The position numbers and the translations under genes were made by a program. From a virus, in the IMG/VR virus record IMGVR_UViG_3300045988_107626, positions 1-36,588 of that record: a stretch of DNA of 36,588 nt. One strand, written 5' to 3'. The notes under the pieces were generated by a model. That model was given only the letters and a program-made list of their open reading frames with translations. It ran no database searches and was not told the origin of the DNA. This document shows positions 2,220 to 36,588 of this stretch, piece by piece. Every line of letters begins with the position of its first letter. Positions within the stretch are counted from its first letter, which is position 1.

Positions 2220-5200
2220 ATGGCCGGCGTTTACAAGGCAGGAACGCTCTACGTTGACGTCGTGCCCTCCATGAGGGGTTTCTTCAAGACCGTCGAGGCA
2301 GACGCAAAGGCCCAGCTGCCCAACATCGGGCAGAACGCGGGTAAGGACTTTGCGAACGGCTTGCGCTCTGGCGTAGGTTCCAGCGGCGCCCAGGTAGCGA
2401 AGTCCATCAGTCAGCCTATCGACGCTGCCGCCACTGAGGCGAAGGCCAGCGTCGACAAGATGACGAAGAGCATGCAGGCCTCGACGGGCGGCATGCAGAA
2501 AGCTGCGGAGGGCGCGGGCCGCAGCTTCACGACGATGGGCGCCGAGGCTGGCCGCAGTCGCGGCCCTATCGAGTCGGCGACGCGCGACCTTGACGAGGCC
2601 GCGCAGGCAGCGGAGAAGGCCGCGAGGGGCACGCGCGAGGCGGGCTCGGGCTTCTCCTCTATGGCGGGCTTTGCACAGAGCGCGATCGCTCCTCTGGCGG
2701 CAATGGCCGCAGCCGTGGGCATCGGTGGTTTCGTCTCCGAGGCTATCGCCGCGTCCGACGCCACCCAGAAATTCGCGGACACCCTCAAGTTTGCGGGGAT
2801 TGATCCTGATCGGATCGAGGAGCTGGGTGCAGCCGCGCAGAAATATGCCGACGAGACCGTCTATGACCTGTCGGACATTCAGGGTATTACGTCGCAGCTC
2901 GCTGCGAACGATGTCGAGGGATTCGACAAGCTCGCCGAGGCGGCGGGTAACCTCAACGCCGTCGCGGGCGGCAGTGCGGAGACCTACAAACAGGTAGGCC
3001 TCGCGCTCGTGCAGGTCAACGGGGCCGGGAAGCTGGCGACGCAGGATTGGAATCAGATCGCAAACGCCATTCCCGGCGCGTCCGGGAAGATTCAGAAGGC
3101 GCTGCTCGACGCGGGCGCCTATACCGGGAATTTCCGCGACGCAATGGCCCAGGGCCAGATCAGCGCGCAGGAATTCAACGAAGCTCTGCTGAGCCTCGGC
3201 TTCGACGAGGTCGCAGCGAACGCGGCTCGCGATACGAGCCGTATCGAGAATGCTGCCGGTAACCTCCAGGCCACGATCATGGGCGGCGTGAAGGATCTCG
3301 TCGACTACATGAAGCCCACGATCACAGACCTGATGGGCTGGCTGTCGGACATGTTCTCGAACGCCTTCGGCTGGATCCAGGAGCACAAGGATCTGCTGGT
3401 CGCCCTTGGTGAGGGGATCGGCGTTGCGGTTGCCGCGTACTGGGGCTTCTCGGTCCTGACGACGGTCATCGAGTGGATCAAAAACACGACGCTCGTGCAG
3501 GAGGGGCTCAACGCCGCTATGGCTGCGAACCCTATCGGCTTGGCGGTCGTGGCTATCGGCGCGCTCGTCGCTGGCCTGATCTACCTGTACAACACGAACG
3601 AGGACGTCGCGAACGCGATCAACTCGCTCGGTGCCGGCATCGCGGAGTTCTGGACGAACAACGTCACGCCGATTATCGACGCTTTCGTCGATTATACGAA
3701 GAACACACTCATCCCGGGCATCGAGTCGGCCTGGGGCATCCTAACCACAGGCGACTACGACGGCAACCTCTTTGGCCTTGAGGAGGACTCGGCGCTCGTC
3801 GACTTCTTCTTCACGCTGAGGGACGCGCTCCTCACGGTCGGCGAGATCGCGTACACCGCGTGGACGGACAAGATCAAGCCGTCCCTTGAGGCGGCGTGGG
3901 AATGGATCAGCGGCACGCTGTGGCCGGGCCTCCAGAACTTCTGGTCAACCGTGCTGCAGCCCTTGTTTGAGGGGATCGGCTCGGGCCTGGCGCTCGCCTG
4001 GACCGCCGTCATCCGCCCGGCGCTCATGGGCATCTGGACGCTGATCTCCCGCGTGCTGTGGCCCGTCCTCAAGACACTCTGGGAGAACGTCGTCAAGCCC
4101 CTCTGGGAGGGCTTCGCATCGGCAGTCCAGTCAGCATGGGCCGTAATCTACCCAGCCATGCAGGCGCTCGCGGGTTTCTTCCGTGACACCCTGATGCCCG
4201 CGCTGTGGAGCTTCTGGCAGGACGTGGTCCAGCCGGTGTGGACGAACGTCTCGAACTTCATCCTCGCGGTGTGGGACAACGTCTTGTATCCGCTTTTCGA
4301 CCTGCTCGTGACGGTGCTTTCGGGCACTGTCGGCACGGCCTTCCAGGGCCTGTGGACAATCGTCGTCACCGCCTGGAATGGGATCAGCTCGGCGATTCAG
4401 ACGGTCTGGGGCATACTATCCCCGATATTCTCGGCGATCGGCAGCGCGATCTCATCGACGCTCGGCCCAACCTTCACGTGGCTGTACGACTCGGTCATCA
4501 AGCCGGTCTGGGACAAGATCTCGTCGGCGGTGCAGACAGCATCATCCGTCCTGATCGACGTCGTATTCCCGGCGATCAAGAACGCAATCGGCGGCATGAA
4601 AGAATCGTTCGAGTCTTTCCGCCAGTCGGTCGAGACCGTGTTCGAGAAGATCAAGGGCGCCGCCGCAAAGCCGATCAACTTCGTCATCACGACGGTCTAC
4701 AGGGACGGCATTAAGGCCGCGTTCGATACGATCGCCGCGAAGGTCGGCCTCTCCGTCCGGCTCCCCGACGTGAAGGCCATTCCGGCCTACGCGACCGGCG
4801 GCGTGTTCTCCACCATGACGCCCGGATATTCTCCGGGCAAGGACATCTATCACTTCTACAGCCCGGACGGGGGCGGCGCGCTGCGCCTGTCTGGCGGCGA
4901 GGGCATCATCCGCCCCGACGCGCTGCGCGCTCTCGGCGGGAAGCCCTGGCTCGACAGAGTCAACGCCTCGCGCGGCTCCGGCCTCGCGACCGTCGGAGAG
5001 ACCGGACGCCGCCGCGGCGAAGTCGCCTTCGCAGACGGTGGAATCTGGAACGCCGTCAAGGGCGGCTTCTCCGGCGCCCTGGACTGGGTCAAGGAAACCA
5101 CGGAAGCAGTCGCTGAGATCGTCACCGACCCCGCAGCCGCAATCGCAAACCTGGTCATCAAGCCGGCGCGCGATCTGCTCTCCACCAAGGACGGCAGCTT

Positions 5201-13398: not shown

Positions 13399-14272
13399 GC
13401 TGACGATCTATCGCCGTCGTCGCAACGGTGGTGACGTGCCCGGGGTCGTGCGTCGCCGTCGTCGCGACGGAGGGGATCTTCTCCTGCGTCGACGTGAGGC
13501 GACGACTCCGGTCACGCCCGCCGCGACGGACGTCGTCGAGCACTTCCTCAAGCAGAGGCCCTTCTATATCGCCCATAGGATGAGCGGCACGGAATATCCG
13601 GAGTTCACGCAGCGGGGTCTTGATGCCTCGCTGCGTGCTGGCTTCAAGGCGCTGGAGATCTCCGTCCGGCTCTGCGCTCGGGGGCCGCACGGAGAGCCTG
13701 CCGAGTTTGTCGCGATCCATGACTGGAAAACGACTCGCACGGTCCCGGGGACGGATCTGCCGATCTGGTCTACTCCCTGGAGCACGCTGCGGACTCTGCA
13801 GCAGGGCACGGGGCCGTTTATGCGGCTTCGGGATATCGTCGATCAGATTCCCGATGATGTCGTCCTGGCGATCGACCACAAGACGACCTCGTCTGAGGAT
13901 CAGCGGAACGCTGCTGATCTGAAGGCTGAGGAGCAGCTCTTCGAGTACCTGGACACCGCTTTCGGGGGGCATCCCGAGCGTCGCGTGATCTGGAAAGTTT
14001 TTGCGAAGGGGACGAGCGCGGCGCGCGCGAAAGCGCGCGGCTATCGCACTATGGCGATGCTGTATCCCGCCGAAGTCCCCGCGGCGAACCTGCAGCAGTG
14101 GGATGTGATCGGCATGGAGTGGTCCGCGAGCGCGGACGTGTGGAATCGCATCAACGCGTCCGGGCGTCCGACGATCGCGCACATCATTACGAACGAAGGT
14201 CAAGCGCGTACGGCGTTCGATAAGGGGGCGTCCGGCCTTATGGCATCGTTCCCGTCTCGCGTGCATCCGTAG
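13373..14272 (+). CDS. Glycerophosphodiester phosphodiesterase (GDPD)-like protein (up to 299 aa; start uncertain: 13373, 13391 or a later GTG)
   Basis: FYIAHRMSGTEYPEFTQRGLDASLRAGFKALEISVRL and VAIHDW resemble the GDPD HR..E and HD signatures. The N-terminus is Arg-rich. Confidence 0.6.
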   Translation: MSRWSPVAELTIYRRRRNGGDVPGVVRRRRRDGGDLLLRRREATTPVTPAATDVVEHFLKQRPFYIAHRMSGTEYPEFTQRGLDASLRAGFKALEISVRLCARGPHGEPAEFVAIHDWKTTRTVPGTDLPIWSTPWSTLRTLQQGTGPFMRLRDIVDQIPDDVVLAIDHKTTSSEDQRNAADLKAEEQLFEYLDTAFGGHPERRVIWKVFAKGTSAARAKARGYRTMAMLYPAEVPAANLQQWDVIGMEWSASADVWNRINASGRPTIAHIITNEGQARTAFDKGASGLMASFPSRVHP

Positions 14273-14281
14273 CCGATGCAG

Positions 14282-14316
14282 AAGGCCCCACCGCCAGTTT
14301 TGGGCGGTGGGGCCTT
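14282..14316. terminator. Bidirectional terminator between convergent genes
   Basis: Perfect 14-bp stem AAGGCCCCACCGCC / GGCGGTGGGGCCTT with a 7-nt loop AGTTTTG. Confidence 0.8.
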
Positions 14317-14325
14317 CCCTTGTTG

Positions 14326-14718
14326 TCAGGCCTTGGCGGGGGCTGTCACTCCGATTCCGGGATCGAAATCCCAGTGGTAGCTGGAGCAGTCGCAGTTCGC
14401 GAGCCAGTAGTTGAACTCTGAGTCGAGGCTGAGGAGGAAGCCTCGACGAATCATCTTGATGATCCACTTGAAGTCGTCAAGCGTGACGATCTCTCGCGGT
14501 GTCGGGTAGAAGTGGATCGACATCGGATCGGCTTCGTCGCCGTAGGCGCGGGCGATTTCGCGGCCGTCGTAGCTGATAGCGACGAAGAACTCCTCCGTGG
14601 GGCGGGCAGGGCCGTTGAATGCCCAGCCGGGGCAGCCGGGGATATCGACGGTGTCGCAGCTGGTCCATGCCTTGGTGGCGGCTTCATTGAATGCTTGGGT
14701 GGCGGCGTAGAGGTCCAT
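14326..14718 (-). CDS. Orphan moron protein A (130 aa, Cys-rich, no recognised family)
   Basis: The internal ATG at 14718 is preceded by AAGGAG. It is driven by duplicated promoter module copy A and followed by the 14282-14316 terminator. Confidence 0.7.
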   Translation of the reverse strand: MDLYAATQAFNEAATKAWTSCDTVDIPGCPGWAFNGPARPTEEFFVAISYDGREIARAYGDEADPMSIHFYPTPREIVTLDDFKWIIKMIRRGFLLSLDSEFNYWLANCDCSSYHWDFDPGIGVTAPAKA

Positions 14719-14725
14719 GGTTTCT

Positions 14726-14811
14726 GTCTCCTTCTTTGAGGGTCGGGGGGCTCGTCCCTCCCGATGCATTAACTATACATCGTGCGCGATGCATAGCGCA
14801 AGTTGGAATAA
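14726..14811 (-). promoter_or_regulatory. Duplicated promoter/operator/leader module, copy A
   Basis: On the minus strand: -35 TTGCGC (14796-14801), 18-nt spacer, -10 TATAGT (14772-14777). Palindrome TATGCATCG-CGCA-CGATGTATA at 14774-14795. Extra half-site ATGCATCG at 14762-14769. A leader hairpin precedes the SD AAGGAG. Confidence 0.7.
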
Positions 14812-14823
14812 CTGTATTGTGCG

Positions 14824-15039
14824 CTACTTTTCGATGTCGGTGCGGGCACCGCGTCCGGGGCGATCGCGCTGCCATTCATCGATTGTCTCGGGAGCCCAGC
14901 CGCGCAGGGGACCGGAGGGGGTAGAGATGATGACGTCAGGCGCGGGCATGAGGCCGCGCAGGATGTATGAGCGGATCGTGGGGACAGCGAGGCCGAGGCG
15001 TTCTGCGACAGCAGCCGTTCCGAGGTACTCGGTAGTCAT
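14824..15039 (-). CDS. MerR/excisionase-family HTH protein (71 aa)
   Basis: LGTAAVAERLGLAVPTIRSYILRG is a winged-HTH_17-type motif. RBS GAGGA. Starts 11 nt after the upstream HTH gene. Confidence 0.65.
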   Translation of the reverse strand: MTTEYLGTAAVAERLGLAVPTIRSYILRGLMPAPDVIISTPSGPLRGWAPETIDEWQRDRPGRGARTDIEK

Positions 15040-15050
15040 GATTCTTGTCC

Positions 15051-15461
15051 TCAGTCGTAGGGGGTGACGATCTGGACGGGGATGCCCTGATCGGAGAGGA
15101 GCTGGTATGCGCGCCCGACGCAGGCACGGTACGAGGGTAGGGGGAGCCGCATTGCCCATCGCGTGCTCTGACGATAGGTGAGAATGTCCTGGTACGCAAT
15201 GAGCGCTGTCGGCAGCGCCCGCACGCCCTCGTTCTCGTCGTCCACGCTCTCGATGAGCTCGTCGACGCAGTCGAGGGCCGCATCTTCGATCTCGCCGAGG
15301 AGCATGTGAATGCTGATCGGATCCCTTGGTTCACTCTTACCGATTTCCCAGGAGCGGATAACGCCCTCGTTGACGTCCAGGAGGACGCCGAGGTCAGCGC
15401 GGGAGAGGCCGAGGGCCTCTCTTCGACATCTCAGTCCGGCGGGTGTGAGTGGTTCGGTCAA
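15051..15461 (-). CDS. XRE-type HTH protein with unassigned C-terminal domain (136 aa, TTG start)
   Basis: LRCRREALGLSRADLGVLLDVNEGVIRSWEIG is a Cro/C1-type HTH. RBS GGAGGAG. Confidence 0.65.
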   Translation of the reverse strand: MTEPLTPAGLRCRREALGLSRADLGVLLDVNEGVIRSWEIGKSEPRDPISIHMLLGEIEDAALDCVDELIESVDDENEGVRALPTALIAYQDILTYRQSTRWAMRLPLPSYRACVGRAYQLLSDQGIPVQIVTPYD

Positions 15462-15480
15462 TTCTCCTCCTACGGGTTGA

Positions 15481-15510
15481 CCCCCGCGCCGGCGGTTTCG
15501 GGCGCGGGGG
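15481..15510 (-). terminator. Hairpin (terminator or attenuator) after moron B
   Basis: Perfect 10-bp GC stem CCCCCGCGCC / GGCGCGGGGG with a 10-nt loop. No U-tract. Confidence 0.45.
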
Positions 15511-15524
15511 CCTTGGTTTGCTGG

Positions 15525-15866
15525 TCAGCCCTCGGCCAGCCAGGCGTTCGTCTCGGCGACGAACTGGGCGACGGCGGCGGCAACCTCGGGGTCGGGGGTG
15601 CGTTCGGCGGGGCCACGGTAGCCGCCCCAGATTTCGGCGGGCCACTCGACACGGGGGATGTACTGCTCGATGAGCGGCCATTCCTGGGTGTTGTTGGTCG
15701 AGGCACTGCCGCCCGGCAGGGAGGAGTCGAAGATCAGCAAGCTAATCTTGATCTCGTCCTGGTAATCGCCGTAGATGACGGCACGGGCGCCGTTGTCGAG
15801 GTCGGCGGCAATGAGGGCGTTGTCGCCGTCGAAACGCTCTGCCTTGGTCCAGTTTGCGGTGGTCAT
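15525..15866 (-). CDS. Orphan moron protein B (113 aa, acidic, no recognised family)
   Basis: The internal ATG at 15866 follows AAGGAG. It is driven by duplicated promoter module copy B. Confidence 0.7.
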   Translation of the reverse strand: MTTANWTKAERFDGDNALIAADLDNGARAVIYGDYQDEIKISLLIFDSSLPGGSASTNNTQEWPLIEQYIPRVEWPAEIWGGYRGPAERTPDPEVAAAVAQFVAETNAWLAEG

Positions 15867-15872
15867 TTCAGT

Positions 15873-15958
15873 GTCTCCTTCTTTGAGGGTCGGGGGGCTC
15901 GTCCCTCCCGATGCATTAACTATACATCGCACGCGACGCATAGTGCAACCTGGAATGA
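15873..15958 (-). promoter_or_regulatory. Duplicated promoter/operator/leader module, copy B
   Basis: Offset exactly 1147 nt from copy A. 57 nt are identical, then 22 of 29 match. -35 TTGCAC (15943-15948), 18-nt spacer, -10 TATAGT (15919-15924). Confidence 0.7.
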
Positions 15959-15982
15959 ATGTGATCTACAAAACAATAGCAC

Positions 15983-17140
15983 TCAGATAAGGACGTGCGA
16001 GTCCATACGCGAAGTCAAGGCCGCGTCGCGCTCGCGGGTCGCATGCTGATAACGGAGAGCGACGTCAACGTCGCTGTGCCCGCCACGATGAAGCAGCTCA
16101 GCAAGCGTCGCGCCCTGCTGTGCGAAGATCGTGAGGCCAGTGTGTCGCAGATCGTGGAACTTGAACCACGGGATACCCGCATCATCGCGGGCGCGCTCCC
16201 AGGCCCCGCGCAGGCTATTAGGATGCAGGGGCAGGCGCGGAGATCGCTCGGAGGATAGGAGCCAGGACGTGCCCGCAGGCGCGACATAGGAATCGAGGTG
16301 CGCGCGCAGCTCTGGGACCAGCGACGCGGGGATGACGATCTCGCGCACGCCGGCGGCACTCTTCGGGGGAAGCTCGACCGGCCCCTCCCCTGCTAGATAC
16401 TGCACCTGTCGCTCGATCCGGAGAGTCGCAGGCGTGGAGTCGAGATCAAGATCGCGGCGCTGCAAGCCAGTCAGTTCACCGAGCCTGGTCTGGCACCATG
16501 CAGCGAGCAGGACGGCGATGCGCAGGCGCGCGGGCATTGCATCTGCGGCGGCGCGAACTTCCTCGGGGGTCGCGACCTGCCGCTCGCGCTCGCGGACGGG
16601 ACGGTGCTTCTGACCCTCGGGAACCTTGCACGGGCTCGCCTCGATGAGGCCGCTCTTAACCGCGGCGTTCATGCAAACCGAGAGTGTCATATAGATCGGA
16701 CGCGTGACGCCCGGCCCCTTCGCATCCCAGACGTGCTGGTACCATGCGTCAACATCCTCGACACTGATCGCCCCGAGCGGCTTCGCGCCGAAAACCGGGA
16801 CGAGCTGCCTCATCCGATAGGTGTGAGTCTGAATAGTCTGCGGTGTGCGACCCAGTCGCTCGAGCGACGCGAGCCAGCGGTCCGACCATGCCGCGAAAGT
16901 GATAGCCGCGCGCTCGGCGGCGACCTCCTGCGCGCGATCGCGCTCGCGGGCTTCTTTGGGGCTGGTCCAGGTACCCTCGCTGATCTCGGCTTCGACGTGT
17001 GCGAGGAAAGCGCTTGCGTCGGTCTTGCGGATGAATGAGCGCCCGGCGGTGTACTTGCCGCCGTCGGGGCCTGTGTAGCGGACCTCGAAGCGTCCGCTGC
17101 GGGCTTTCCGGATCGAGCCGAAGGCTCTGCGTCCGCTCAT
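15983..17140 (-). CDS. int: Tyrosine recombinase / phage integrase (385 aa)
   Basis: C-terminal HDLRHTGLT...GHSDVDVALRYQH (R-H-R-Y catalytic pattern). The N-terminal arm-binding-type domain reads RFEVRYTGPDG. The real start is ATG 17140 after GAGGAGG; the ORF-track extension to 17359 is rejected. Confidence 0.9.
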   Translation of the reverse strand: MSGRRAFGSIRKARSGRFEVRYTGPDGGKYTAGRSFIRKTDASAFLAHVEAEISEGTWTSPKEARERDRAQEVAAERAAITFAAWSDRWLASLERLGRTPQTIQTHTYRMRQLVPVFGAKPLGAISVEDVDAWYQHVWDAKGPGVTRPIYMTLSVCMNAAVKSGLIEASPCKVPEGQKHRPVRERERQVATPEEVRAAADAMPARLRIAVLLAAWCQTRLGELTGLQRRDLDLDSTPATLRIERQVQYLAGEGPVELPPKSAAGVREIVIPASLVPELRAHLDSYVAPAGTSWLLSSERSPRLPLHPNSLRGAWERARDDAGIPWFKFHDLRHTGLTIFAQQGATLAELLHRGGHSDVDVALRYQHATRERDAALTSRMDSHVLI

Positions 17141-17187
17141 GTCTGCCTCCTCGGTAGGGAAATGGCGCAGCATCTTATTCCACAGGA

Positions 17188-17405
17188 TGCGCCACCCGTG
17201 CGCCACTAGCAATGCTACACCCTGCGACATCCTGACATATGGGAGAGGGAGGGACGAGGGCGCGAAAACCGCGCGAGGGCAATGAAAACCCCGGAATCTC
17301 AATGAGATTCCGGGGTGTGTGTGGAGATGGGGGGAATCGAAACGGATGCCCCTAATCACAACGGAAAGTGCATGCGCCGCCTCATGCGCGCCACTACAGC
17401 GCCAC
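17188..17405 (-). other. Candidate attP with a tRNA 3'-end-like core
   Basis: The minus strand reads TTCGATTCCCCCCATCTCCA (17322-17341), matching a T-loop, T-stem 3' strand, acceptor 3' strand and discriminator. It is followed by a hairpin. GCGCCAC direct repeats spaced 11 bp apart sit on both sides (17189/17200 and 17388/17399). Confidence 0.55.
17289..17315 (-). terminator. Rho-independent terminator
   Basis: Perfect 12-bp stem CCCCGGAATCTC / GAGATTCCGGGG with a 3-nt loop, followed by TTTTC on the minus strand. It lies downstream of the 17411-17872 gene and of the tRNA-like core. Confidence 0.8.
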
Positions 17406-17410
17406 AGAGT

Positions 17411-17872
17411 TTAGCGGAATATGCGGCCCCAACCGCCAGGCTTCGGGGCGGGCTGCTGAGGCGCGCCGGGCCGAGCGACCGGCACAGCAGGCGGCACTGG
17501 CGCGGGCTGGGACTGTGCGGCCTTCACGGCGGCGCGCGTGTGCGCGACAAATCGCATGAGCCCGTCGACGGCTTTGCGCTCGAAATGGAGAGTCAGCAGG
17601 GCGCTGCGGGTTTCGATCATGAGCCACTTGTCACCGCCGCTCTTTTTCTTCGCAGCAAGCGCGAAGATACCGAGCGCGACGAGGCGCGTCGCAGTCACGC
17701 GCGCCTGCGCCGCTTCGCCGTCCTCGACCTCGATACTGACGACGTCGGTCAGCGGGATGCGCTGGATTGGTTCGCCGCGCCGCTTCGAGTCGTAGAGCAG
17801 CTCGGTGTCGGTGCAGATGATCTCCGCAGGATCGGATGAGTAGAGCCGGAAGGCTCCTTTGGGTCGGTGCAT
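17411..17872 (-). CDS. Hypothetical protein with bacterial PH-like N-terminal region and Pro-rich tail (153 aa)
   Basis: Strong RBS AAAGGAGGAG. Co-oriented with and directly downstream of the repressor gene. I could make no confident family call. Confidence 0.6.
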   Translation of the reverse strand: MHRPKGAFRLYSSDPAEIICTDTELLYDSKRRGEPIQRIPLTDVVSIEVEDGEAAQARVTATRLVALGIFALAAKKKSGGDKWLMIETRSALLTLHFERKAVDGLMRFVAHTRAAVKAAQSQPAPVPPAVPVARPGAPQQPAPKPGGWGRIFR

Positions 17873-18641: not shown

Positions 18642-18823
18642 GCGCCGTCGTCGCGGTGACCATCGGCCTGATTCTCGCGGTCGCCGCAATACCTGTCATC
18701 GTATGCGTCGTATACCTCACGGGTATCTACGCAGGGGATGCGCTCGACCGCCTCGTTTGTATGGGCCTAGACGCGGGTGATCGGATCGCCGAAATGATCG
18801 ATGGGGAGGTGCCCGGGAAATGA
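18638..18823 (+). CDS. Small membrane protein (61 aa)
   Basis: ATGA coupling; hydrophobic N-terminal 30 aa. Confidence 0.5.
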   Translation: MSAVVAVTIGLILAVAAIPVIVCVVYLTGIYAGDALDRLVCMGLDAGDRIAEMIDGEVPGK

Positions 18824-19041
18824 CCGCCGCTGCACCGTTCGCGCCGGAGCGCTGGTACTCCGCGCAGCAGGTCCAGGAAACCCTCAGCCTCTCCCGCTCA
18901 ACCGTCGAGCGCCTCGGAGTCGAAGGCAAGGTCGCCGCAATCAAGATCGGCCGATCTGTCCGATACAGCGGCGACGACCTCAACCGCCAGTGCCAGAGCC
19001 TCGGCTCCGGCCTCGCCGAAAAGAAGAGCTCCCAGCGGTAG
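18820..19041 (+). CDS. Excisionase-type HTH DNA-binding protein (73 aa)
   Basis: WYSAQQVQETLSLSRSTVERLGVEGKVAAIKIGRSVRY is an HTH_17/AlpA-Xis-type motif. Lies in the early operon, the usual RDF position. Confidence 0.65.
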   Translation: MTAAAPFAPERWYSAQQVQETLSLSRSTVERLGVEGKVAAIKIGRSVRYSGDDLNRQCQSLGSGLAEKKSSQR

Positions 19042-22417: not shown

Positions 22418-22656
22418 TCGAAATCAAGCAGGCGCGCAACGTCCCCGGCTTCCGCTTCTGCCCTGTCTGCCGCACGCGCCTCGCGCCGAAAGGCTCGAAC
22501 GTCCGTGTCACAATCGACGCCGAAAACGAAGCCACCGCAATCGAGCACATCACGCACAAAGCCTGCGCACAAACCGTCATCGCCTTCACCCGCGATCGCG
22601 GCTACACGCCTGCCGAGCTCGCGGAGGTCGGCATCTGGGCTGAGGAGCAGCGATGA
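22414..22656 (+). CDS. Hypothetical zinc-ribbon-like protein (80 aa)
   Basis: ATGA coupling at 22414; CPVCRT motif. The upstream part of ORF 22144-22656 is Arg-rich junk. Confidence 0.5.
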   Translation: MIEIKQARNVPGFRFCPVCRTRLAPKGSNVRVTIDAENEATAIEHITHKACAQTVIAFTRDRGYTPAELAEVGIWAEEQR

Positions 22657-23042
22657 GGCTCCCAATCAGGATTCAGCGCCGCCGCGCTCGCGGCTGGCGT
22701 ATGCCCGCGCATACGAAGTATGTGGGCAGGGGGAGCCTGTACGGGAACCCTTACCGAGTCGCCCGGTCGGCGCGTGAGCTTGAAGAGGGCGGCGAGCTTG
22801 TTGTCGCATCGGCGGATGAGGCTGTCGCTCGGTATCGCGAGTGGATCGAGCAGACGCGAGAAGGTCGGTTCGTAGCGTCGTGCGCAGCCCGGAATTTGTG
22901 GGGCTTGGACCTGGCTTGCTGGTGCAAGCTCGATCAGCCTTGCCATGCAGATGTGCTCTTGGAGATCGCGAACCCGCGCGGTGAGCGCGAGTTCGAGAAC
23001 CGCTATTACAGGATGTGGGACCGAGACGAGGCCGAAGAATGA
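22653..23042 (+). CDS. DUF4326-family protein (129 aa)
   Basis: GRGSLYGNPY ... LACWCKLDQPCHADVLLEIAN matches the DUF4326 signature as I recall it. Confidence 0.7.
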   Translation: MRLPIRIQRRRARGWRMPAHTKYVGRGSLYGNPYRVARSARELEEGGELVVASADEAVARYREWIEQTREGRFVASCAARNLWGLDLACWCKLDQPCHADVLLEIANPRGEREFENRYYRMWDRDEAEE

Positions 23043-24287
23043 CAACTATCGGCAGTCTCTTTACTGGCTACGGCGGTCTAGATATGGCGGTCCGCATGGC
23101 GCTTGATCCGGATGCGCGCGTCGCATGGACGAGCGACGTCGAACCCGGGCCGTGCAGGCTTGCTGAGATGCGCTGGCCGGGTGTCCCGAACCTCGGGGAC
23201 ATCACGCAGGTCGATTGGTCGCAAGTTGAGCCGGTCGACATTATCTGCGGCGGATCGCCCTGCCAGGATCTGAGCCTCGCTGGTCGCCGTGCGGGCATGG
23301 CCTCGGGGACGAGATCGGGCCTGTGGGAGTCGATGTTCACGGCAATTAAGACGCTGCGCCCGCGTCTGGTCGTATGGGAAAACGTGCGAGGGAGTTTGAC
23401 AAGTGGAGCCTACAGTCTGGTGGAATCAGAACAGGGACTGCTGGGAGACCGAGCAGATGGACCTGTTCTCCGAGCAACCGGTCGTGTGGTCGGAGATCTG
23501 GCCGGCATCGGGTATGACTCGCAATGGTGCGTTGTCCGTGCTTCCGACGTCGGTGCCCCTCATCAGCGAGAGCGACTTTTCCTTACTAGCCACTCCGCAG
23601 GCGAACCTTGGCAGCTGCGGGGGCTCGCAGACACCGGAGAAGCGGCGGGCCGGGGGACACTCGGTGAGTCTCGCGGATCAGATCGAGCACCTGGTGCCCT
23701 GATCCCGACGCCGACCGCGTCGGACCACAAGGCCGGGCGCCACCAGGCGGGGACGGGAATGAGCCTGTCCCAGGCGGTGCAGATGCTGCCGACGCCGGTC
23801 GCGCAGCCCTCGGGCAACTCTCCCGAGGAGCACCTGCGCAAAAAGCCAGGCCGCATACAGGTCACAGACCTAGCGATCCTCGTTGAGAACGGACTGCTGG
23901 CAACGGGAGGACTCCTACCGACTCCGCAGGCGACGAACGCGACGGCATCCTCGACCGGCTACGGATCGAACCTGCATGAGGTGGCAAGAGGGATGAAGCC
24001 CGGCATCTTCGGCGTCTATGGGCAAGCGATTGCCAGGTGGGAGCGGGTGCTCGGACGTGAGGCTCCAGCTCCGACTGTCCCGCCGACACGCGAGGGGGGG
24101 GCGAGCACGGCTCTCGACTCGCTTCGTCGAGTGGCTCATGGGGTTGGAGGACGGGCACGTGACCGGAGCAGACCTCGGGCTGACGCGAGAGCAGCAGCTC
24201 CGGCTCCTCGGAAATGGCGTCGTCCCGCAGCAGGGTGCCGCCGCTATCTATCAGCTCACCAGGATCGCCCTTAAGGAGGCAGCATGA
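23039..24287 (+). CDS. DNA (cytosine-5)-methyltransferase, reading frame broken (+1) at a G8 tract
   Basis: Motif I LFTGYGGLD, IV GGSPCQDLS, VI WENV and VIII APHQRERLF, followed by LxPTP repeats, all in the 23039 frame. Motif IX/X (RFVEWLMGL, LLGNGVVPQQ) is in the next frame after 24094-24101. Removing one G restores a single ORF. Confidence 0.85.
24094..24101 (+). repeat. G8 homopolymer at the methyltransferase frame break
   Basis: Counted directly: CGAGGGGGGGGCG. Confidence 0.95.
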
Positions 24288-36239: not shown

Positions 36240-36587
36240 GTGGGGAACAACTTCCGCAGGGACGCCGCCGGTATTAAAGGCTTCCTGCAAAGCGGCGCCC
36301 TCGCGCCCGGCCTCCACAAGGAAGCCGAGCAGCTCAGGGCCGCAGCAGCCGCCGCAGCCCCGAGAGGCCTCACCGACAGCCTCGCCGACTCATACAAGGC
36401 CGAAACGACTAAAGCACCGCTCAGACCGGGAGGTCCGGTCCGAGACGTGGGCCGCGTCTACAACGACGCACCGCACGCGCTCGCTGTCGAGTTCGGACAC
36501 CGCTCAAGAACCGGAAAGCCGGTCCCTGGAGCGCACACTCTCCGAGCGCTCCTCGGAGCCAGATCTAAACGGAGGCGGTCACGATGA
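36240..36587 (+). CDS. HK97 gp10-family neck/tail-completion protein (115 aa, GTG start)
   Basis: APHALAVEFGHRS...GAHTLRALLGA resembles the HK97 gp10 family signature. The TGA at 36585-36587 overlaps the ATG that corresponds to position 51. Confidence 0.65.
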   Translation: MGNNFRRDAAGIKGFLQSGALAPGLHKEAEQLRAAAAAAAPRGLTDSLADSYKAETTKAPLRPGGPVRDVGRVYNDAPHALAVEFGHRSRTGKPVPGAHTLRALLGARSKRRRSR

Positions 36588-36588
36588 C
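36534..36588. repeat. Terminal overlap copy 2 (identical to 1-55)
   Basis: Exact 55-nt identity; 55 nt is a common assembler k-mer length, so this likely marks a circular contig. Confidence 0.97.

Follow-up and report, generated by a model that had tools for sequence, protein, structure and literature searches.

Aca2, one of the anti-CRISPR-associated (Aca) proteins, binds an inverted repeat over the -35 and -10 elements as well as hairpins in the 5' untranslated region (5'UTR) (PMC6765145, PMC13551039), and repeated pairs of DNA and RNA motifs are predicted to place neighbouring anti-defence operons under the control of Aca proteins (PMC13551039). YdiL and SO3848 are the sole entries of the Protein Data Bank (PDB) that align with both Aca2 domains, and SO3848 is encoded downstream of a small gene with an inverted repeat over the -35 (PMC8434428). 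Here we compare with these systems a locus in the IMG/VR virus record IMGVR_UViG_3300045988_107626, whose 36,588 nucleotides (the window, meaning the whole stretch of DNA analysed) carry at 14281-15962 two copies of a promoter/operator/leader module, each ahead of a small unannotated gene, together with the genes of a 136-residue and a 71-residue helix-turn-helix (HTH) protein, HTH136 and HTH71. The reading we favour, at about even confidence, is that 14281-15962 is an accessory cassette of xhp1-like Actinomycetaceae phages in which an Aca-type autorepressed operon and a co-repressed second operon carry anti-defence-type cargo. An earlier note on this DNA had likened the locus to anti-CRISPR (Acr) and Aca loci; the likeness stands for the regulatory architecture, which is well supported by our analysis, and for the predicted fold of HTH136, while the function of the cargo stays hypothetical.

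With its first 55 nt recurring at 36534-36588, the window represents a full phage genome of ~36.5 kb, circular (or terminally redundant), and it is a temperate genome related to the Actinomyces (Schaalia) phage xhp1. The latter integrates, is induced and forms infectious particles, and is thus a functional temperate phage (PMC13578794). In xhp1 the integrase gene (int) lies directly after the GDPD gene and both HTH genes are missing, and because xhp1 runs straight from GDPD to int, the four-gene block 14326-15962 is an accessory insertion relative to it. For comparison, ~60 phage and prophage loci (given L numbers below, and proteins four-digit P numbers) were gathered by searches with a 21-mer of the module core, with HTH136 and with the slot-1 protein B, and by exact protein look-up; the 21-mer was found in 12 stretches in IMG/VR and had no exact match in the representative-genome collection. 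Across these loci the order is constant: int, module, slot-1 cargo, hairpin, HTH136, HTH71, module, slot-2 cargo, terminator and convergent GDPD gene.

The duplicated promoter, operator and leader module

A repeat search returned the two module copies at 14725-14815 and 15872-15962, 91 nt long with 91% identity and a spacing of 1147 nt. Reading the sequence confirmed the repeat as first reported, with 57 identical nt (14726-14782 and 15873-15929) followed by 29 that match at 22 positions, and a 55-nt core is present exactly twice in the window (0.00 expected from shuffles). All the elements that had been read on the minus strand, from the -35 through an 18-nt spacer, -10, dyad, third half-site and hairpin to AAGGAG and the ATG, are present in both copies, P1 and P2:

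15867-15962, minus strand: module P1, upstream of gene B, including a conserved upstream element
15943-15948, minus strand: -35 of P1, TTGCAC
15921-15942, minus strand: dyad of P1, TATGCGTCG-CGTG-CGATGTATA, covering the spacer and the -10
15919-15924, minus strand: -10 of P1, TATAGT
15875-15880, minus strand: Shine-Dalgarno (SD) sequence of P1, AAGGAG, followed by ATG
14719-14815, minus strand: module P2, upstream of gene A
14796-14801, minus strand: -35 of P2, TTGCGC
14774-14795, minus strand: dyad of P2, TATGCATCG-CGCA-CGATGTATA, covering the spacer and the -10
14772-14777, minus strand: -10 of P2, TATAGT
14728-14733, minus strand: SD of P2, AAGGAG, followed by ATG
14762-14769 and 15909-15916, minus strand: third half-site ATGCATCG (CATCG)
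14743-14764 (P2) and 15890-15911 (P1), minus strand: leader hairpin UCGGG(A)GGG-ACGAG-CCCCCCGA, from the minimum-free-energy structure

When 45 distinct modules were aligned, the TTG of the -35 and the TAT.GT of the -10 were invariant and adjacent positions variable, and distant phages carry TTGACC, 17 nt and TATTCT at the corresponding position. Invariant hexamers amid variable flanks, along with these distant counterparts, support the assignment of P1 and P2 as predicted housekeeping-sigma promoters (-35 TTGCRC, 18 nt, -10 TATAGT). An alternative promoter upstream of the dyad was rejected, as no candidate is conserved in both slots. The suggestion that the module is a portable promoter/operator/leader unit is likewise supported: it heads at least seven cargo types across related phages, and behind its core the cargo varies and the module is kept. 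Among 33 distinct two-module loci, the window included, the copies within a genome are more alike than copies from different genomes, both in the leader (96.6% versus 92%, permutation p ~2e-4) and in the promoter part compared across slots (76.7% versus 73.7%), a concerted evolution that indicates gene conversion or co-adaptation to one trans factor.

The full 10+4+10 dyad occurs at these two sites and nowhere else in the 36.6 kb (0.02 expected). In the module alignment 87% of dyad cells are strictly complementary, rising to 97% with G-T allowed, and 4 of the 10 pairs have changed on both sides, as against 0.9 in shuffles (0/500 reach the observed value) and 0-2 in slid controls. Four loci (L036, L046, L054 and L055) have a fully switched dyad, TAGCCCG-N4-CGGGCTA, at the same position, and this class was seen only with the 'APESA' subfamily of HTH136, one of the HTH136/HTH71 subfamilies. 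The symmetry of the dyad is thus under selection, whichever protein reads it. Taken as sense-strand RNA, the dyad would stay a perfect stem even where the DNA palindrome is imperfect. The third half-site is found just after the -10 as claimed; its role as an operator site is uncertain because it coincides in part with the hairpin's 5' arm and with the probable transcription start. In three distant loci (L090, L093 and L094) a second inverted repeat, ATGTGAT-NCAC-ATCACAT, lies ~20-30 nt upstream of the -35 (~60-80 nt before the start of the B homologue), and the window modules retain ATCACAT(TCATTCC) where these relatives carry it; this upstream ATCACAT element could be a site for HTH71.

For the leader hairpin a census by regular expression proved too noisy, and a covariance model (R1) was used instead, giving 87 matches in 64 loci with exactly two in the window (15875-15919 and 14728-14772, each E 1.5e-15). 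Altogether 94% of cells are paired and four pairs show compensatory changes, counts of covariation that understate the G-C to A-U exchanges seen by eye (L092, L088, L096), since the model's alignment puts distant hairpins out of register. The bulged design is kept in phages at 31-45% protein identity with another lower stem (GUCGA/UCGAC). Two leader hairpins stand in tandem in L088 and L096, and in L088 the whole module is repeated ahead of another small gene.

Exchangeable cargo and the paired HTH proteins

The four genes, the 11-nt gap between the HTH genes and the two strong hairpins are where they had been described:

15525-15866, minus strand: gene B, cargo slot 1, 113 aa, isoelectric point (pI) 4.2
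15481-15510, minus strand: GC-rich hairpin without a U tract, between B and the ribosome-binding site (RBS) of HTH136
15051-15461, minus strand: HTH136 gene, 136 aa
14824-15039, minus strand: HTH71 gene, 71 aa, 11-nt gap after HTH136, own RBS
14326-14718, minus strand: gene A, cargo slot 2, 130 aa, pI ~4.5
14281-14317, both strands: hairpin of 15 perfect bp, common to the convergent GDPD gene and A
~17285-17345, minus strand: attP core, matching the 3' end of the host transfer-messenger RNA (tmRNA), TTCGATTCCCCCCATCTCCAC..., plus its terminator hairpin

A strong hairpin follows the slot-1 cargo in every locus examined, although its sequence differs among lineages, and slot 2 is wholly absent in some phages. 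Neither of the two hairpins in the window shows a U tract on the minus strand. From its sequence, 14281-14317 is a predicted bidirectional terminator, and 15481-15510 is likely an attenuator or a 3'-end stabiliser that would give a high ratio of cargo to regulator. Because no promoter can be recognised for the two HTH genes themselves, which lie behind this U-less hairpin, B, HTH136 and HTH71 most likely form one operon with an internal attenuator. The view of A and B as two promoter-gene-terminator morons thus has to be amended, in that the hairpins exist but are U-less and B is not self-contained. That the cassette is prophage cargo agrees with its absence from xhp1 and its place next to int. 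In integrated relatives int and the cassette are at the prophage end adjoining the host tmRNA gene, and these prophages sit directly after ssrA, near smpB (e.g. L039 7070-7483).

The two slots hold seven cargo types belonging to at least six unrelated, unannotated families. Slot 1 is occupied by B (113 aa), C (137-139 aa), F (99-114 aa) or G (121 aa), and slot 2 by A (130 aa), D (137 aa), E (92 aa) or C. By hhalign, C and D form the sole related pair (84%, E 7.5e-6), and every other pairing is unrelated, including that of A and B, as the earlier note had stated. Five of the seven types (A to E) have a pI of 4.0-4.5. No cargo type has a match in Pfam or PADLOC, A-E have none among the PHROGs, A and B none in NCBIfam, and A, B, C and E none by sequence in the PDB, so that the absence of a known family for either small protein of the window was borne out by all five collections. 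Regulators and cargo recombine independently: in L024, B and A are 92% and 97% identical to those of the window and the HTH proteins just 69-72%.

Homologues of protein A are confined to this phage group. Its description as Cys-rich stands for C21, C29 and C109, which are conserved along with H115, whereas the Cys-richness of the C-terminus is only partly conserved and C111 is variable; a C3H/C4 zinc site using C111 was rejected on the same ground. Three proteins considered as distant homologues (P0027, P0024 and P0025) proved to be frameshifted copies of the same gene. The AlphaFold (AF2) model of A has a predicted local distance difference test (pLDDT) score of 77.5.

Protein B, in contrast to its first description as an orphan, belongs to an unnamed wider family of 56 representatives at E<=0.001 (HMMER profile search), which has no Pfam domain and is recognised by the motif ST..DWP.VE[RK][FY]IPR.EWP...AG..GP..RTPD. 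Its distant members again stand before HTH136 and HTH71 homologues: those at 31-39% identity precede the pair next to an integrase gene, so that this trio of B-like, HTH136-like and HTH71-like genes is shared by distant phages. Other settings of B were also seen. In P0198 (174 aa) an E-like N-terminus (37% over 59 residues, E 4e-6) is joined to a C-terminus resembling B, a natural fusion which hints that cargo E and B may act in the same process. L077-L087 represent another group of elements: ~120 nt upstream of position 3001 they have a tRNA-like 3' end GGTTCGATTCCGGCCCCGCGA and a hairpin, and the B homologue comes next as the first gene, so that it borders an integrated element, without an HTH pair beside it. 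In L058 (1400-6400, an Actinomyces metagenome-assembled genome) a B homologue (44%) lies among small, acidic, mutually paralogous open reading frames, none with a Pfam match, a run that resembles an anti-defence or leading-region island.

Sequence searches placed HTH136 poorly, with just sub-threshold Pfam matches to HTH_3 and HTH_31. We therefore turn to its AF2 model, which was built with 28 homologues and is confident (pLDDT 91.1, predicted template modelling score (pTM) 0.84), as the proposed check on the fold of this protein. The model predicts an XRE-type HTH at the N-terminus, joined by a long helix to a C-terminal alpha/beta domain, and its only full-length matches in a Foldseek search of the PDB are SO3848, Aca2 and YdiL (1s4k). 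SO3848 (2ox6) is the best structural match, with a query TM-score (TMq) of 0.81 over 132 columns; the Aca2 entries (7ezy, 7vjq, 7vjo and 7b5j) give TMq 0.64-0.67 and target TM-scores (TMt) of 0.70-0.75 over 129-132 columns. HTH136 is thus predicted to have the Aca2/YdiL/SO3848 (DUF4447-like) fold, and this two-domain fold lends the Acr-Aca analogy support. Weak matches to DUF4447 were found in 20 of 29 HTH136 homologues (best E 0.0042), though not in the window's HTH136 (no PF14590 match), and one record of this family in the nr database is named DUF4447 by its source. PADLOC gives just a weak HTH-level match (RmrA, 0.003). We conclude that HTH136 has a predicted Aca2-like fold and cannot be shown by sequence to belong to the Aca2 family, its nearest relatives being in the SO3848/DUF4447 branch. 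On the strength of the model, we propose it as the putative dimeric repressor of both module copies.

In every locus HTH71 comes after HTH136, with ~9-30 nt between the two genes where this was examined, and the pairing extends to the loci at 45% identity. Its residues 5-35 alone match the MerR/HTH_17 HTH (Pfam MerR 2e-5, below the cut-off), its best PHROG match is PHROG 597 (1.8e-22), labelled 'DNA binding protein', and PADLOC reports a weak HTH-level match (mad1, 1e-5). HTH71 may be a co-regulator. A role as a classical MerR activator was rejected, as HTH71 has 71 aa and the spacer 18 nt (17 in distant phages), against the winged-helix N-terminal domain, long dimerisation helix, effector domain and 19-20-bp spacer expected of that class.

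An Rfam scan of 14000-17600 returned nothing relevant. Some relatives, with cargo D or E or with slot 2 empty, have an extra 232-aa gene between slot 2 and GDPD that is not in the window (L030 4120-4818, L026 3373-4071 and L020 4219-4917); Pfam recognises a ROS/MucR zinc-finger region in its product (1.4e-10) but does not confirm the likeness to HTH_17 that the N-terminus shows by eye. In the early region of the window an orphan C5-cytosine DNA methyltransferase gene follows a DUF4326 gene (22653-24274, plus strand), and the pair is a second, conventional anti-restriction candidate within the same phage.

Proposed mechanism and competing explanations

In the mechanism we favour, P1 would drive operon 1, consisting of cargo B, the U-less hairpin that would probably pass just part of the transcripts, HTH136 and HTH71, and P2 would drive operon 2, consisting of cargo A and the terminator. 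Each transcript would begin 1-4 nt before the 8-bp bulged hairpin, with a strong SD ~10 nt past it. On DNA entry both promoters would fire; HTH136 would then accumulate, dimerise via its C-terminal domain and bind the dyad in both copies, where it would block RNA polymerase, so that its own operon is autorepressed and the second is co-repressed. In the lysogen cassette expression would be kept low. The 5'-proximal hairpin may stabilise the mRNA or, as for Aca2, serve translational repression as an RNA site, and the U-less hairpin after the slot-1 cargo would keep the regulator low relative to the cargo. Cargo slots would be exchanged by recombination at the conserved modules, and the most likely role of the small, mostly acidic, lineage-restricted cargo would be to neutralise host defences.

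Several findings weigh against this account. A generic sigma-70 scan left both promoters uncalled because each -35 matches TTGACA at just 3/6 positions, and the covariation of the leader hairpin is modest because most of its positions never vary. An identical HTH136 protein (P0145) occurs with both dyad classes (L042/L043 versus L046), and both classes are present in each of L036 and L055, so that the inner bases of the dyad do not follow the regulator; for this reason repressor-operator co-evolution was dropped as proof that HTH136 reads those bases, and selection of the dyad could lie with HTH71 or with a role at the RNA level. One-sided dyad variants are mostly G-T on the sense strand (46 cells versus 6 A-C), a bias that fits an RNA stem, such as one in read-through transcripts, as well as a DNA operator. 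On the side of the regulator, a Pfam scan at E<=10 gave no DUF1870 match in the 29 HTH136 homologues, a profile search against the PDB found SO3848 at E 0.1 and did not recover Aca2, and Aca2-fold proteins are also found outside anti-defence contexts (PMC8434428). As for the cargo, no type shows likeness to an Acr or anti-defence protein known so far, type F has a basic pI (9.2), and the model of protein A has no Foldseek match above noise in the PDB or BFVD.

A bolder form of the same account, which we consider conceivable but doubtful, would make the locus a new branch of the Aca2 fold with an obligate MerR-type partner, controlling a two-slot, hot-swappable anti-defence cassette through a DNA operator (the dyad) and an RNA operator (the hairpin) that represses translation. 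The dyad could then also act as RNA in read-through from int or HTH71. Families A, B, C/D, E, F and G would be new inhibitors of immunity in oral Actinomyces/Schaalia hosts with B as the ancestral partner, and E and B would share one target, because they are fused in one protein.

Less probable than the reading we favour is a lysogenic-conversion or superinfection-exclusion island, in which the regulation would be the same and the cargo, its level in the lysogen controlled by the HTH pair, would serve the prophage and its host by blocking superinfecting phages or altering the host. The cassette does occupy the classic moron position at the prophage end by int and attL, each cargo has its own promoter and a following hairpin, and cargo differs between near-identical phages, a variation like that of the prophage-encoded defence loci of mycobacteriophages. 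For Aca2, basal expression in lysogens has been noted (PMC6765145). Yet no cargo has a PADLOC match, and the proteins, which lack any enzymatic or nucleotide-binding signature, are very small and mostly strongly acidic, as is more usual for inhibitors than for defence effectors; reading their sequences brought out none of the transmembrane or lipoprotein features that classical exclusion proteins have, and the predicted fold of the regulator is that of an anti-defence-associated repressor.

We think it unlikely that the locus serves the control of integration and excision, with HTH71 as Xis, HTH136 as its regulator, the dyads serving mainly as terminators or insulator hairpins behind int and HTH71, and mere passengers for small genes. 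This would account for the position of the cassette, which adjoins int in all loci even where the integrase differs, and for the dyads, each of which lies ~35-40 nt past a stop codon, would form a 10-bp stem if transcribed, and has the sense-strand G-T bias described above; in addition, HTH71 matches MerR/HTH_17 and PHROG 66 ('excisionase and transcriptional regulator'). However, its best PHROG match is not an excisionase, and the TTG and TAT.GT are invariant with an SD and ATG after each module, so that the modules start genes and do not merely end them. HTH71 is unlikely to be an excisionase, moreover, because xhp1 integrates, is induced and infects without either HTH gene (PMC13578794) and the phage already keeps another HTH_17 gene, conserved in the early region (18820-19041).

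A toxin-antitoxin or addiction module, with HTH136 as an XRE-type antitoxin and autorepressor and the neighbouring small protein as toxin, is very improbable: promoter-dyad autoregulation is typical of type II modules and the HTH domain shows weak NCBIfam and Foldseek likeness to the HipB, MqsA, HigA and Xre-type antitoxins, but the constancy of HTH136 beside partners swapped among at least six unrelated families is a strong argument against it, being incompatible with specific toxin neutralisation, and the cargo is upstream, hairpin-separated and acidic with no toxin fold or family, while the predicted full-length fold is that of Aca2/SO3848 and not of such an antitoxin.

Significance and comparison with known systems

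If the cassette is the pair of repressed operons that we favour, it extends Aca2-type logic, in which a DNA operator and a leader RNA element let one regulator serve several operons, to another phylum and to a sequence-divergent branch of the fold. What appears to be new is the combination, in phages of Actinomycetota, of an accessory cassette of two operons, a regulator of predicted Aca2 fold, an obligatory second HTH protein and at least six new cargo families. We found no anti-CRISPR or other anti-defence protein described for Actinomyces/Schaalia phages, whose hosts are abundant in the human oral microbiome, Schaalia also being host to the episymbiont TM7x. The cassette yields a short list of at least six unannotated candidate families under one conserved regulatory signature, which can be searched by covariance model or 21-mer, and the tractable, naturally cassette-free pair xhp1/XH001 offers a clean gain-of-function setting.

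Mycobacteriophages carry morons for prophage-mediated defence in central, int-proximal positions, where the small genes vary and their expression does not depend on the lytic programme. The present locus is similar in being a set of variable small genes by int in an actinobacterial temperate phage, whereas the mycobacteriophage loci are not built on a repeated promoter-operator-leader unit with an Aca2-fold regulator, and their effectors are usually larger and often membrane-associated or enzymatic. The AcrIIA1 loci of Listeria prophages also lie at the prophage end after the lysis genes, their small genes vary, and a protein with an HTH and a C-terminal domain, AcrIIA1, autorepresses via a palindrome. 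AcrIIA1 is itself an Acr, and it is not among the Foldseek matches listed for the HTH136 model. SO3848 of Shewanella oneidensis (PDB 2OX6, DUF4447) is like HTH136 in fold, and it differs in being chromosomal and not in a prophage and in having two extra C-terminal helices; this match informs on the fold alone.

The closest parallel is Aca2, from which the locus departs in several respects. HTH136 is not a member of DUF1870 by sequence, and the host belongs to the Actinomycetota and not to the Proteobacteria. The dyad is of 10+4+10 layout with a core of CATCG-N4-CGATG, compared with TTCG-N6-CGAA for Aca2, and most modules have one bulged hairpin, which does not copy the DNA dyad in sequence. 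The locus always includes a second HTH gene, of MerR type, the cargo is set apart from the regulator by a hairpin, and no cargo is a known Acr. In its overall plan, however, the locus resembles acrIF8-aca2 of Pectobacterium phage ZF40, where the core of a strong promoter likewise lies under an inverted repeat and a 5'UTR hairpin precedes the RBS (PMC6765145, PMC8434428). In both, the HTH repressor gene stands downstream of small genes that are unannotated or encode inhibitors, although the upstream gene here is not a known acr gene and the operon is a predicted one, and both regulators combine an N-terminal HTH with a C-terminal dimerisation domain in what the model predicts to be the same fold. 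As in the regulons of Aca2, such as the Marinomonas spartinae locus, the regulatory unit is repeated before a neighbouring operon that has no regulator of its own (PMC13551039).

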